DNA from: a virus
Lineage: Duplodnaviria; Heunggongvirae; Uroviricota; Caudoviricetes
Reading direction: 5' to 3' (one strand)
Length of the DNA: 23,702 bases
Virus record (IMG/VR): IMGVR_UViG_2645727555_000014
Position numbers and translations under genes: made by a program. The notes under the pieces are model-generated. The model searched no databases. It saw only the letters and a list, made by a program, of their open reading frames with translations, and was not told the origin of the DNA. Below are positions 3,228 through 18,929 of the stretch, in pieces (the stretch's first letter is position 1; each line of letters begins with the position of its first letter).

Positions 3228-3271
3228 CCATTTGTGTTAGAAAATACATATTAATTATCTAACACAAATGG
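3228..3271. promoter_or_regulatory. perfect 13-bp inverted repeat (ccatttgtgttag / ctaacacaaatgg) carrying the TTTTCTAACACAAA box, immediately upstream of rdgC
   Basis: 3228-3240 is the exact reverse complement of 3259-3271, with an 18-nt AT-rich spacer. Lies between the stop of the spike-like gene and the rdgC start codon; no T-run follows on the minus strand. Confidence 0.4.
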
Positions 3272-13140: not shown

Positions 13141-14082
13141 TTAACTAACAATCCAGTCCGTAGCAACAACATCCTCTGGAGCTAAATCAATCGCATGGAT
13201 TTTCCCATCCCGGATAGTGCGCCAGTGCTTTCGTGATCCACCTTCGGGCCACACCCATACACCTTCAGGCCAGGATGCTCGACGGCATACGATTGCATAG
13301 CCTGTTTTAATCCTCTCTCTGGCGGTATGCAACGACAGGTTTGCCTTTGGACTTTCAGGCACAGGATGGTGGATTGCCTGAAACATCCCCATCTTTGGAT
13401 GATACCAGCGTTTATTGCGTGGTTCTGCCTCCGACATCACCTGCTTAAAGGCTTTCCGGAAGGGGGCCAGGGCCACAATGGAGCGTCGCGCAAGCAAACC
13501 ATCGGGAGTTAAAAACTCATGCGTATCGGTGGGAATCCGGTAAGCGTTGACCAGGTTGCGGCATTTGGCTTCAGTCAGGCCACATTTCGCCGCCAGCTGG
13601 CGGTAGCCAATGTAGCCTTCCGGAATATTGCCTTTCTTTATTTGCTCGAGTGTTTCAGCGACCATCGATACTTGTGCTGATACCTCGGCTACCTGGGCAT
13701 TTACGGCGTTGATCCGGCGTTCATGCTCAAGATGCATTTGCGCCATTTCAGCCAGGATTTCGGCTTTTGATTTTAACTGTACCCGGGCATTCTCCAGTTC
13801 GCGCCAGCGGTCCACCAGCCGGGCGGTAAATTCGGGAGAGAGCTGCGCGACGACGACAATACTATCGCGCTTGCCTTGTTCGCCTTCGAAGACGTAAGCC
13901 TCGACACTACGGCGTAGTCCTAAATTATTGATTTTTTCGAAAACCTCAATTTGAGGAAATCGGACAACGCCGCCTTTGGCTAATGTCTCAATAGTGCGTT
14001 TCACATTGTCATGACGCTTACCTACCAGTTCTGCGATCTCAATACTGGTCATTGTCGCTTTGCGAGAGATGGGCAGATTCAT
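13141..14082 (-). CDS. phage antirepressor, Rha family N-terminal domain with C-terminal extension
   Basis: 313 aa; N-terminal TMTSIEIAELVGKRHDNVKRTIETL matches the phage regulatory protein Rha family signature as I recall it. GGAGG SD; ATG overlaps the stop of the upstream small ORF (TGATG). Confidence 0.8.
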   Translation of the reverse strand: MNLPISRKATMTSIEIAELVGKRHDNVKRTIETLAKGGVVRFPQIEVFEKINNLGLRRSVEAYVFEGEQGKRDSIVVVAQLSPEFTARLVDRWRELENARVQLKSKAEILAEMAQMHLEHERRINAVNAQVAEVSAQVSMVAETLEQIKKGNIPEGYIGYRQLAAKCGLTEAKCRNLVNAYRIPTDTHEFLTPDGLLARRSIVALAPFRKAFKQVMSEAEPRNKRWYHPKMGMFQAIHHPVPESPKANLSLHTARERIKTGYAIVCRRASWPEGVWVWPEGGSRKHWRTIRDGKIHAIDLAPEDVVATDWIVS

Positions 14083-14297
14083 CAGTGTACCTCCACGCAG
14101 TTCATCGGCAGATTCCAGTAATTGAGGATCTCCATCGCATCAAGAGTGAAGCGAGCAGCAAAAATGCAGGGTTCTTCGGGAAGGTATGAGCGCGCTTCTG
14201 CTTCGGTTGCAGCCATGACGTAGATATACAGGTGTTTTTGGCAGGAATAGAAACGCCAGATGAATTCAGAATGAGTTGGGGTAGGGATAGTAGCCAT
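14082..14297 (-). CDS. small hypothetical protein (71 aa), first gene of the antirepressor operon
   Basis: Strong AAAGGAGG SD 8 nt upstream of ATG 14297; translationally coupled to the Rha-family gene. Confidence 0.55.
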   Translation of the reverse strand: MATIPTPTHSEFIWRFYSCQKHLYIYVMAATEAEARSYLPEEPCIFAARFTLDAMEILNYWNLPMNCVEVH

Positions 14298-14455
14298 ATT
14301 GGCAGCCTCCTTTGACTGTGAACGATACCACCGCCGAAGAGACCAATCTTACTGGCGGTGGACTGTGTGGAGTTGGTCTTACCGGCGTCAAAGGGAACCG
14401 GCGCTTCCGAAGAAGCCACCACACAGCCCACCATTGATAGGCGTGCGAGTGCGCC
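14298..14455 (-). promoter_or_regulatory. highly structured leader / candidate regulatory RNA upstream of the antirepressor operon
   Basis: On the transcribed (minus) strand: 13/14-bp long-range helix (14357-14370 with 14419-14432), GCUUC-UUCG-GAAGC hairpin (14403-14416), an 8-bp stem ccaccgcc/ggcggtgg (14328-14335 / 14354-14361) that competes with the long helix, and GAUUGGUCUC in the loop of that stem. Confidence 0.35.
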
Positions 14456-14460
14456 GACAA

Positions 14461-14483
14461 CAAAAAAGACGCTTGTGGCGTCT
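14461..14483 (-). terminator. rho-independent terminator (minus strand)
   Basis: Minus strand reads AGACGC-cacaa-GCGTCT followed by TTTTTTG. About 105 nt downstream of the small minus-strand gene ending at 14589. Confidence 0.5.
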
Positions 14484-14588
14484 ATGTGTCGCCTTTGACA
14501 TTACCGGGAGACCAATCCCGGCACCCGTTTTTCTAAGGTGCCGTAGAAATATACCCCACGATAATGCCAGGGCGCAACAGTCAGTATT

Positions 14589-14756
14589 TTATGCTTTGGC
14601 GGATTTCTTCCGGGCTTGCTTGCAGGCGTAGGCCATTGCTTTAGCTTTCACTTCATCCAGCTTCCCGGTGATCACTTCTTTTCCGAGAGTGACAAACCAG
14701 TCATAGCAACCGCCAGTAATGTTCTTGATTTGAAAGTTGAGGTAGCGAACAGTCAT
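14589..14756 (-). CDS. small hypothetical protein (55 aa)
   Basis: Below the ORF-track size cutoff; found by eye. GGGGGTG SD about 7 nt upstream of ATG 14756, stop TAA at 14589-14591. Product MTVRYLNFQIKNITGGCYDWFVTLGKEVITGKLDEVKAKAMAYACKQARKKSAKA. Confidence 0.45.
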   Translation of the reverse strand: MTVRYLNFQIKNITGGCYDWFVTLGKEVITGKLDEVKAKAMAYACKQARKKSAKA

Positions 14757-14887
14757 TTTGACACCCCCAGCGCGAGTAAAGAATGCAGATTATCGCGTGA
14801 GTGGTGGACGACGAGTGATGGGAAAAGACTGTAGCTGTTCATAGTGTTGTGACTCCTTGCTTTCGGAGCCGCCATCGACTGTTCCAC

Positions 14888-14980
14888 GGTCTGGCGGCGG
14901 CGCAATAAAGGCTGGAACACCGTGAGTCAACGGGGGCTTTTCAGCCACCTATATTGCACCGCCATAGGTCTGGCGGCGGC
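14888..14980. repeat. two copies of a 14-bp direct repeat GGTCTGGCGGCGGC (each followed by CAATAA-like sequence) in a ~250-bp non-coding region
   Basis: Exact copies at 14888-14901 and 14967-14980, spacing 79 bp. No ORF of significant length on either strand in 14843-15087. Confidence 0.6.
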
Positions 14981-15087
14981 AATAATACGAAAAACTAAAC
15001 AGTTTGTCTCAAAAAGTTGACCGGTGTGCCAATCAGTAGTGAATGTACATCGGAGAAATTTACAATTCAACTTAAAATGTTAGAAAA

Positions 15088-15666
15088 CTAATTTATCAAT
15101 TCAATCGCCATCTGATACAACGCCATTTCATCGGCATTGTGCCGTATGAAATCAGCTTTTCCGCCTATTTTTCCATCAGCATGAACAGGGACCAGCCAGG
15201 GATATTGTTCTCGGACCTCGGCTGGCGCTGCGTACTGGTGGTGCCATTTACACAAAGGGAGGACATATTTATGCGCGTTCTCTGCCGTTCTCCCGAAGAT
15301 ATGGTGCAGGGATACTACTGGGCTATGTTGCCCGTGAATATGGCAGGCAATGCAGGGGAGAGTACCGATAGCGGTCTGTATCCGGCGTTCATCGGCTGTG
15401 AGTGATCTGCCCTTCAGGCCGCGTGACGTGTGTGTTTTTTTGGGCGGAGCGGATACAGCTTTATCTTTTCTCCGCTGTTCATATTGCTTTGCTTTTTCAA
15501 TTTTCTTTTGCCGATATTCAGGCGATGCGGCTTTTTCTCTCGCTCGCTGCTGCTGGCGTTGAGCTTGTTGAAGGCGCTTTGCCCTTTGTTCCTCTCGCCA
15601 GGCCGGGTCAGCCAATTTTTGCATGGCTTTTTGTCTCTGTTTCTCCCAATAACTCTGTTTCTGCAT
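15088..15666 (-). CDS. Ref-like (recombination enhancement function) HNH-type nuclease
   Basis: 192 aa. Highly basic N-terminal ~80 aa (KQRQKAMQKLADPAWREEQRAKRLQQAQRQQQRAREK...), then SRGLKGRS, CIACHIHG and LCKWHH His/Cys motifs, resembling phage P1 Ref as I recall it. Confidence 0.6.
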   Translation of the reverse strand: MQKQSYWEKQRQKAMQKLADPAWREEQRAKRLQQAQRQQQRAREKAASPEYRQKKIEKAKQYEQRRKDKAVSAPPKKTHTSRGLKGRSLTADERRIQTAIGTLPCIACHIHGQHSPVVSLHHIFGRTAENAHKYVLPLCKWHHQYAAPAEVREQYPWLVPVHADGKIGGKADFIRHNADEMALYQMAIELIN

Positions 15667-15730
15667 GATGGCAGTCTCTTACTTTTCAACGATTTTTCTA
15701 TGATTGATCAAAATGGTTAGGTATTCAAAA

Positions 15731-15759
15731 TTGATTTTCTAACACAAAACATTAATATC
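15731..15759 (+). promoter_or_regulatory. promoter-like region for the rightward operon, containing the TTTTCTAACACAAA box
   Basis: TTGATT (15731-15736), box TTTTCTAACACAAAAC (15735-15750), TAATAT (15753-15758). Precedes the first ORF of the plus-strand operon by about 30 nt. Confidence 0.4.
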
Positions 15760-18832: not shown

Positions 18833-18929
18833 TCAAATCATTTACGCACTCAAAATACGTTAGGACATTGATTTTAGTTTTCTAACATATTATTTTACCA
18901 CTCGGAACAAAACAGAGTCGGTATGCATT

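Follow-up and report, generated by a model that had tools for sequence, protein, structure and literature searches.

The 23,702-nucleotide stretch of DNA analysed here (IMG/VR record IMGVR_UViG_2645727555_000014, Caudoviricetes; hereafter the window, meaning this stretch at its full length) is a D6-like, P1-type plasmid prophage, which over positions 14440-15700 shares 96.5% identity with Escherichia phage D6. Our subject is a short region between a gene for a Ref-type RecA-dependent nuclease (15666..15088) and a 55-amino-acid gene (14756..14589; D6 orf85, phrog_7786), in which an exact 14-base sequence is directly repeated. The relevant genes around it are all on the minus strand. The first-pass annotation had described the repeat region as free of any large open reading frame (ORF), which is accurate, and had recognised a leader-like 29-codon ORF (14842..14753; D6 orf86) that has AAGGAG upstream and a stop codon overlapping the start of orf85 (ATGA); both features are present. 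Beyond orf85, the constant downstream cargo of the region, lie an isrK-type RNA that forms the a1/b1 region of a canonical immI module (14541..14462; RF01394, 60 bits), a canonical C4 antisense RNA (14438..14351; RF01695, 75.3 bits), an icd-like gene (14297..14082) and a Rha/Ant antirepressor gene (14082..13141). We refer to the C4-like module of the repeat region as module 1, and to the canonical isrK-C4-icd-ant module 450 bp downstream of it as module 2. As the following analysis indicates, the module-1 element very probably belongs to the C4 antisense RNA family, as a compact member that scores below threshold, has so far gone unannotated and carries its own a2 and b2 target sites.

A probable C4-type RNA and its putative target sites

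In a permissive Rfam scan (901-nt search), the minus strand at 14969..14890 matched the C4 family (RF01695) along the full length of the model (positions 1-87) with a score of 37.7 bits (E = 2e-5); by analogy with the C4 RNA of phage P1, the mature RNA is predicted to span ~14963..14892. The minimum free energy (MFE) structure of the isolated RNA, at -35.5 kcal/mol, has the C4 architecture, with an outer stem of 12+4 pairs, a first hairpin (GGCU-GAAA-AGCC), a second hairpin (CCGU-UGACUC-ACGG) and a 7-nt junction (UGUUCCA), and folding of the region gave z = -3.55. Across seven sequences from three module-1 lineages, the C4 fold is paired in 97.7% of cells. When the outer stem was aligned with those of the P1 C4 and three canonical C4 RNAs, compensatory double changes were seen in 12 of the 18 pairs, and outer-stem cells were paired in 95% of cases as compared to 75% in shuffled sequences, a value reached by none of 500 shuffles. 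The outer stem holds its register across the P1, canonical and module-1 C4 RNAs despite their wholly different sequences.

This RNA also has exact complements at the positions where a C4 RNA would be expected to find its targets. The loop of hairpin 2, UGACUC (14929..14924), which occupies the structural position of the P1 C4 b' element, is the complement of GAGUCA, while the single-stranded junction UGUUCCA (14919..14913), in the position of P1 C4 a', is the complement of UGGAACA. Both words follow the RNA in the correct order on the same strand. The a2-like site UGGAACA (14886..14880) begins at +4 after the RNA and is invariant in the three lineages, and the b2-like site GAGUCA (14855..14850) lies at +35, within AAGGAGUCA (14858-14850), where it overlaps the Shine-Dalgarno sequence AAGGAG (14858..14853). 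The a'/a2 pairing extends over 7 nt and the b'/b2 pairing over 6 nt (7 in pHX138), the pair of a2 and b2 sites is unique within the window, and shuffles of the 48-nt untranslated region (UTR) reproduce the arrangement at frequencies of 4.5e-5 (same words) to 2e-4 (any words of equal length). These results come from a complement search restricted to the loops, which replaced a ViennaRNA duplexfold of whole RNAs against UTRs because stem strands dominate the latter and make it uninformative.

Across modules the geometry is constant, with a2 at +4/+5 and b2 at +35/+36, while the words differ, each matching its own targets. The a' and b' words are CUGUCAA and UCACUAAC in P1 C4, AGACCAA and CCUUUGAC in the window's canonical C4, GUCUCAA and CCUUUUGC in the canonical C4 of D6, GUUCCAA and CCUUUUGC in that of the L035 lineage, and UGUUCCA and UGACUC in the module-1 RNA. 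The junction of the C4-like RNA in L035 and L036 (L035 884-962, L036 1470-1548) reads UGUUCCAAC, which includes GUUCCAA. As this is also the a' word of the L035 lineage's own canonical C4 (L035 323-410; a2 = UUGGAAC), cross-talk at the a site between the two modules of this lineage is possible.

The repeat region was found again in 119 plasmid records from E. coli, Salmonella and Shigella, nearly all of about 90 kb and non-mobilizable, and it is present on plasmids of 99 of the 5426 complete E. coli genomes (about 2%), with no chromosomal copies. In the three lineages, the RNA, a2, the combined Shine-Dalgarno/b2 site and both promoter hexamer pairs described below are invariant, while the spacers and the upstream repeat copy diverge. 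A search of IMG/VR for further family members added 5 new contigs to those already seen, and a scan of GTDB genomes for the a'/b'/a2/b2 pattern gave 0 matches. Salmonella pSa1423-90k (L031) was left out of the comparisons because its many single-base indels resemble assembly errors; at L031 2450-2900 such indels fall even inside the otherwise invariant RNA and Shine-Dalgarno sequence, and assembly errors are their most likely cause.

Turning to the genes downstream, the 29-codon ORF is kept as an ORF of 31 codons with the same ATGA coupling in L035-L037. In the lineage of pHX138 and the S. dysenteriae plasmids, a genuine Icd-like gene (NF033153, 48 bits) takes its place directly after the RNA. 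The 29-codon ORF itself had no match in Pfam, PHROG or NCBIfam. We considered the idea that it is a remnant of icd and rejected it, as tblastn with the pHX138 Icd-like protein recovered canonical icd only and nothing in 14753-14842. The orf85 product has a basic C-terminal tail and is represented by 16 clusters among 5.8 billion proteins, all on ~90 kb enterobacterial plasmids; a scan of GTDB with the protein gave 0 matches. In two relatives (L076 1672-2894 and L077 1672-3189), the 3' end of the orf85 homologue carries an inserted IS605/IS200-family element, which encodes a Y1 transposase and a TnpB with a Cas12f1-like TNB domain; the insertion alters the C-terminus of the orf85 product to yield a protein of 62 amino acids.

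Promoters and a proposed mode of action

Two promoter-like elements precede the RNA on the minus strand. The proximal one, GAGACA-17-TATTAT (15010..14982), with a predicted start at ~14977-14974 within the upstream repeat copy, is the only sigma-70-like match in 14300-15300, and in all RNA-bearing lineages CGAGACAAA and a TATNAT-type -10 are conserved around a divergent spacer. The upstream element, TTGAAT-17-TACATT (15070..15042), agrees with the consensus at 8/12 positions, which is under the cut-off of the scan tool; its hexamers are conserved and its spacer varies in the three lineages. A weak terminator-like hairpin that follows the ref-like gene (15035..15018) is poorly conserved in the sister lineages.

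Abutting the -35 of the upstream element is an operator-like 17-mer, AGTTTTCTAACATTTTA (15089..15073, minus strand), which is a candidate repressor site and recurs with 1 mismatch at 18876-18892. Its 10-base core, TTTTCTAACA, occurs in 4 exact copies in the window, at 3235-3244(-), 15078-15087(-), 15735-15744(+) and 18878-18887(+), all of them intergenic and beside promoter-like sequences, and the first has a one-mismatch inverted partner at 3255-3264(+). The operator-like site is invariant in all lineages. A search of the window for the P1 C1 operator consensus ATTGCTCTAATAAATTT that tolerated up to 3 mismatches found nothing, and we regard TTTTCTAACA as a candidate operator for a C1 repressor of D6 type.

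In L075, a more distant D6-like element (an 88-kb JGI metagenome contig whose orf85 is 67% identical), the operator-like site is retained at 1380-1500 and, together with TTGATA-17-TACATT, stands directly before the orf85 homologue; the C4-like RNA, the proximal promoter and the mini-ORF are absent, and a canonical isrK and C4 follow. Further copies of TTTTCTAACA, one of them inverted, are found in the same intergenic region of L075. Since this element lacks RNA, proximal promoter and mini-ORF while its operator and promoter abut orf85, module 1 behaves as an optional cassette, inserted between orf85 and a conserved promoter that is probably under repressor control.

Read as a whole, the minus strand of the region would carry an immI-type regulatory module that is both compact and complete. 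The proximal promoter (15010-14982) would transcribe a C4-type antisense RNA of ~72-80 nt (14969..14890), which is predicted to fold into a long tRNA-acceptor-like outer stem around two small hairpins. The C4 precursor has been described as an RNase P substrate (Hartmann et al. 1995, as cited in PMC4919922 and PMC11143913), and the sequence prerequisites are present here in the form of an acceptor-like stem of 12-17 bp followed by GCCA (ACCA in relatives). From this family precedent, together with the stem and its RCCA tail, we infer that RNase P would remove the leader, by analogy with P1 C4. The b' (UGACUC) and a' (UGUUCCA) elements of the mature RNA would then pair with b2 (GAGUCA, in the Shine-Dalgarno sequence) and a2 (UGGAACA) downstream. 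As the loop and the junction are exact complements of sites at P1-like positions, this pairing would be expected to occlude the ribosome-binding site of the 29-codon ORF and so to block its translation; given the ATGA overlap, the translationally coupled orf85 would be silenced along with it.

Several observations weigh against the assignment of module 1 to the C4 family and against this mode of action. The score of 37.7 bits does not reach the Rfam gathering score of RF01695 (45 bits), and the homologous RNAs of D6, pHX138, S. dysenteriae, L035, L036 and L077, at 38-42.7 bits, are all sub-threshold too. Inside the module-1 lineages, the C4 fold has four one-sided pair-preserving changes and 0 double-sided compensatory ones, so that the covariation support comes from paralogs. 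The b' pairing of the window's module-1 RNA is only 6 nt long. Perfect a1/b1 sites are absent upstream, where the only candidates, UGGCACA and GAGACA, are both mismatched at the centre: the first is not conserved, and the second is the -35 box. In keeping with this, RF03163 (c4-a1b1) had no match upstream of the RNA at E <= 10. The ORF that follows the RNA in the window is not icd-like, unlike the one in the pHX138/S. dysenteriae lineage, and the window's icd-ant pair follows only after the second, canonical C4. Finally, the promoters and the start site are known as consensus matches only. With respect to the score, the module-1 sub-type is consistently just under the C4 gathering threshold, which is why the RNA is unannotated in D6. 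In a curated re-annotation of pYU39_89, isrK, c4 and icd are listed at this locus and another c4/icd pair near repL, with nothing between ref and orf85 (PMC6799933).

The 14-base repeats and alternative explanations

The feature that had first drawn attention to the region, the exact 14-bp direct repeat, was confirmed: GGTCTGGCGGCGGC occurs at 14888-14901 and 14967-14980, with a spacing of 79 bp, and reads GCCGCCGCCAGACC on the minus strand. No third copy exists in the window with up to 2 mismatches allowed, and shuffles give an expectation of 0.08. If a 2-nt indel is permitted, the minus-strand similarity grows to TATTGC[GC]CGCCGCCAGACC (14888-14907 versus 14967-14984). The GC-rich inverted partners reported for the two copies are likewise present, as UGGCGGU at 14964-14958 near the upstream copy (copy 1, or R1) and UGGCGGC at 14874-14868 near the downstream copy (copy 2, or R2).

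The first-pass annotation had proposed to judge the repeats by their conservation in relatives, and there the repeat as such does not hold. In D6, 32 IMG/VR contigs and 4 sampled plasmids, R1 reads GCCGCCGC[C/T]ATACC and R2 reads GCCGCC[A/G]CCAGACC, so that the two agree at 11-13 of 14 positions, and in the two sister lineages (the pHX138/S. dysenteriae plasmids and L035-L037) they agree at only 6 of 14. A 100% match to positions 14880-14990 is found neither in 114 plasmids nor in 99 complete E. coli genomes. An outgroup comparison identified two derived single-nucleotide polymorphisms (SNPs) in the window, on the minus strand a T->G change at 14970 (copy 1) and an A->G change at 14895 (copy 2), and it is because of these that both copies became alike at 14/14. 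The perfect identity is thus best read as a private by-product of two SNPs on top of an ancestral 12/14 similarity, and the repeat itself as no functional unit.

Each copy has a place of its own in the RNA. Copy 2 (14901..14888, minus strand) comprises the 3' strand of the outer stem, GCCGCC, the GCCA tail (ACCA in relatives) and GACC, and it is invariant among relatives except for A/G at a discriminator-like position. Copy 1 (14980..14967) lies in the 5' leader and start-site region, directly 5' of the outer stem's 5' strand UGGCGGUGCAAUA, with which it can pair, and varies more than any other part of the block, which is otherwise highly conserved. Their shared complementarity to this one 5' strand accounts for the resemblance between the two copies. 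Each of the three module-1 lineages shows significant complementarity between leader and 5' strand (z = -4.3, the value for the window's copy 1, -4.1, -3.6 and -2.2), as do P1 (z = -3.4) and the window's canonical C4 (z = -2.3); in the canonical C4 of D6 or L035 it is not significant.

These relations bear directly on the alternatives. The idea that the repeats build a cis-acting, attenuator-like RNA switch of four segments is compatible with a C4-type antisense RNA and would refine that reading; we consider it rather unlikely, and slightly more so its corollary that the choice between tandem promoters, a constitutive proximal one and an operator-controlled upstream one, decides whether a transcript becomes a regulator (an RNase P-processable C4) or a leader-trapped, unprocessed message with its antisense domain disabled. 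The segments would be R1 (1), the 5' strand (2), R2 (3) and UGGCGGC (14874..14868; 4), and since R1 is like R2 and UGGCGGU like UGGCGGC, they can pair in two ways. With 2 paired to 3 (plus 1 to 4), the RNA adopts the C4 fold and is an antisense RNA that can be processed, while pairing of 1 with 2 and 3 with 4 leaves the C4 stem unformed and places a2 in a hairpin loop. Operator-controlled transcripts from the upstream promoter, with their full leader, would favour the latter and act as messenger RNA, and in proximal-promoter transcripts, which would act as repressor, the C4 fold would be preferred. The MFE calculations agree with such a division, as for a proximal start the C4 fold is at -55.4 kcal/mol as compared to -52.3 kcal/mol for the alternative, and for an upstream start the R1ext:A1 + R2:A2 arrangement (a leader hairpin and an a2-displaying hairpin) is at -63.5 versus -61.0 kcal/mol; these gaps of 2.5-3 kcal/mol are, however, inside the model error. 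A switch would also account for the significant leader complementarity in the module-1 lineages and P1 (z = -2.2 to -4.3), although the module-2 C4 RNAs of D6 and L035 are without it and the leader ATTGCC may be conserved as part of the -10/discriminator. One compensatory change in the leader hairpin, from C-G to U-A, is seen in L035/L036, where the C4 stem is broken, and a 3:4-type hairpin exists in P1 (CCUGC/GCAGG) and in the canonical module (CCACCGCC/GGCGGUGG) too; on the other side, this is a single covariation event, the shuffle control for the alternative helices was not significant, and the start sites are predicted ones. As P1 has the same leader complementarity, a switch, if real, might be general to C4-family RNAs. 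Among the three explanations given in the first pass, 'regulatory switch' came closest, and needs to be recast, as the element would act as a minus-strand RNA of C4 type with targets at the ribosome-binding site of the ORF.

Another proposal, which we find improbable, takes the C4-like RNA for a decaying and non-functional copy of the canonical module that lies 450 bp downstream, with the repeats left over as debris from the duplication. A sub-threshold score, a 29-codon ORF in place of icd in the window's lineage and the absence of the cassette from L075 would all fit with decay. It is harder to reconcile with decay that the RNA, both targets and the promoter hexamers are invariant in three lineages whose flanks have diverged to ~76% identity, that the module-1 region is 98% identical to D6 as compared to 72% for the canonical module, that the mini-ORF and its ATGA coupling are preserved, and that the complementarity between loops and targets is intact and specific. 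The view of the 14-mers as protein-binding sites at the DNA level, be they iterons or operators for a prophage regulator, draws on two exact intergenic copies beside promoters and on prophage regulators nearby (Ant/Rha), and has to contend with a pair that has no further copy in the window, a copy 1 that varies freely among relatives and agrees with copy 2 at only 6/14 in sister lineages keeping everything else, an RNA pairing that fully accounts for copy 2, the lack of a P1-type C1 operator match, and a better operator candidate upstream in TTTTCTAACA with its 4 exact intergenic copies; we hold it to be very improbable. Least credible of all, to the point of being negligible, is a role of the repeats in site-specific recombination or integration, or an origin as the remnant of a tRNA-like attachment site. 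The presence of direct repeats and their inverted partners, a stem like that of a tRNA acceptor followed by a CCA tail, and a Ref-type nuclease gene next to the region might bring such a site to mind. Yet no recombinase is adjacent, and Ref itself is a RecA-dependent nuclease rather than a site-specific recombinase. The element is, moreover, a plasmid prophage, ARAGORN found no tRNA or tmRNA, and structural polymorphisms at the repeats are absent among more than 100 relatives.

Relation to known immunity modules

The nearest known counterpart of module 1 is the C4 system of phages P1 and P7 (RF01695). In the P1 annotation (NC_005856, from which all P1 features were taken; L039), C4 lies at 344-420, its a2 site TTGACAG follows 3 nt downstream, and b2, GTTAGTGA, is placed over the icd Shine-Dalgarno sequence; two promoters, P2c4 and P1c4, stand in tandem, the upstream one having the C1 operator Oc4, and the upstream a1/b1 copies are annotated as 'putative'. 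The layout of module 1 mirrors this Oc4-P2c4-P1c4-c4 order. Common to both are an outer acceptor-like stem around two hairpins, with b' in the hairpin-2 loop and a' in the 3' junction, an a2 site 3-5 nt past the RNA, a b2 site that overlaps the Shine-Dalgarno sequence of a short ORF coupled to the next gene, tandem promoters with an operator-like site at the upstream one, an RCCA-like tail, a 3' strand that can pair downstream so as to display a2, and a leader complementary to the 5' strand. In contrast to P1 C4, the module-1 RNA scores under the Rfam gathering threshold, is shorter, has a hairpin-2 loop of 6 nt as compared to ~12, lacks perfect a1/b1 sites and would have a very short leader if the proximal promoter were used. 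In addition, it is followed by the 29-codon ORF and orf85, not by icd and ant, and stands in tandem upstream of a canonical isrK-C4-icd-ant module of different specificity.

The isrK/c4-a1b1 and C4 modules of D6-like, Stx and Gifsy-type prophages (RF01394, RF03163, RF01695) belong to the same family as module 1. The window's own canonical module (14351-14541, minus strand) repeats its targets: GATTGGTCTC occurs twice, in the isrK hairpin loop and just after C4, and GTCAAAGG twice, in isrK and over the icd Shine-Dalgarno sequence; the 3' strand of its C4, CCACCGCC, can pair with GGCGGTGG downstream, with a2 shown in the loop. These canonical repeats are a1/a2 and b1/b2 targets, whereas the 14-mers of module 1 are leader and 3' stem strand and not loop targets, and module 1, unlike the canonical module, is without an isrK-like upstream RNA. 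The CI RNA of satellite phage P4 (seqA/seqB/seqC), which confers immunity, a small antisense RNA processed from the transcript it regulates and flanked by direct repeats (PMC4825925), resembles module 1 in these respects by description only, and differs in that its antisense targets are the flanking repeats themselves and that it acts through termination of transcription.

When compared with D6, the region of the C4-like module is 98% identical and the canonical immI module (14290-14560 versus D6 L001 3880-4110) only ~72%. In light of this divergence and of the different a'/b' words, the data suggest that the element is hetero-immune to D6 at immI, as P1 is to P7. Module 1 would form a second layer of immI type, in tandem with the canonical module.

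The C4 family itself has long been known from P1, and in that sense module 1 would be an expected kind of element at an expected place. What it adds is a compact sub-type that is under-called by the Rfam C4 model: D6-like phage-plasmids, which are common in E. coli, Salmonella and Shigella, have been annotated with two C4 RNAs, and the module-1 RNA, which is overlooked at the usual Rfam thresholds and forms a tandem with the canonical immI module behind it, would be a third, of orthogonal specificity. This arrangement suggests a layered antisense control of the lysis-lysogeny circuitry, for which the mini-ORF and orf85 provide a concrete candidate target.

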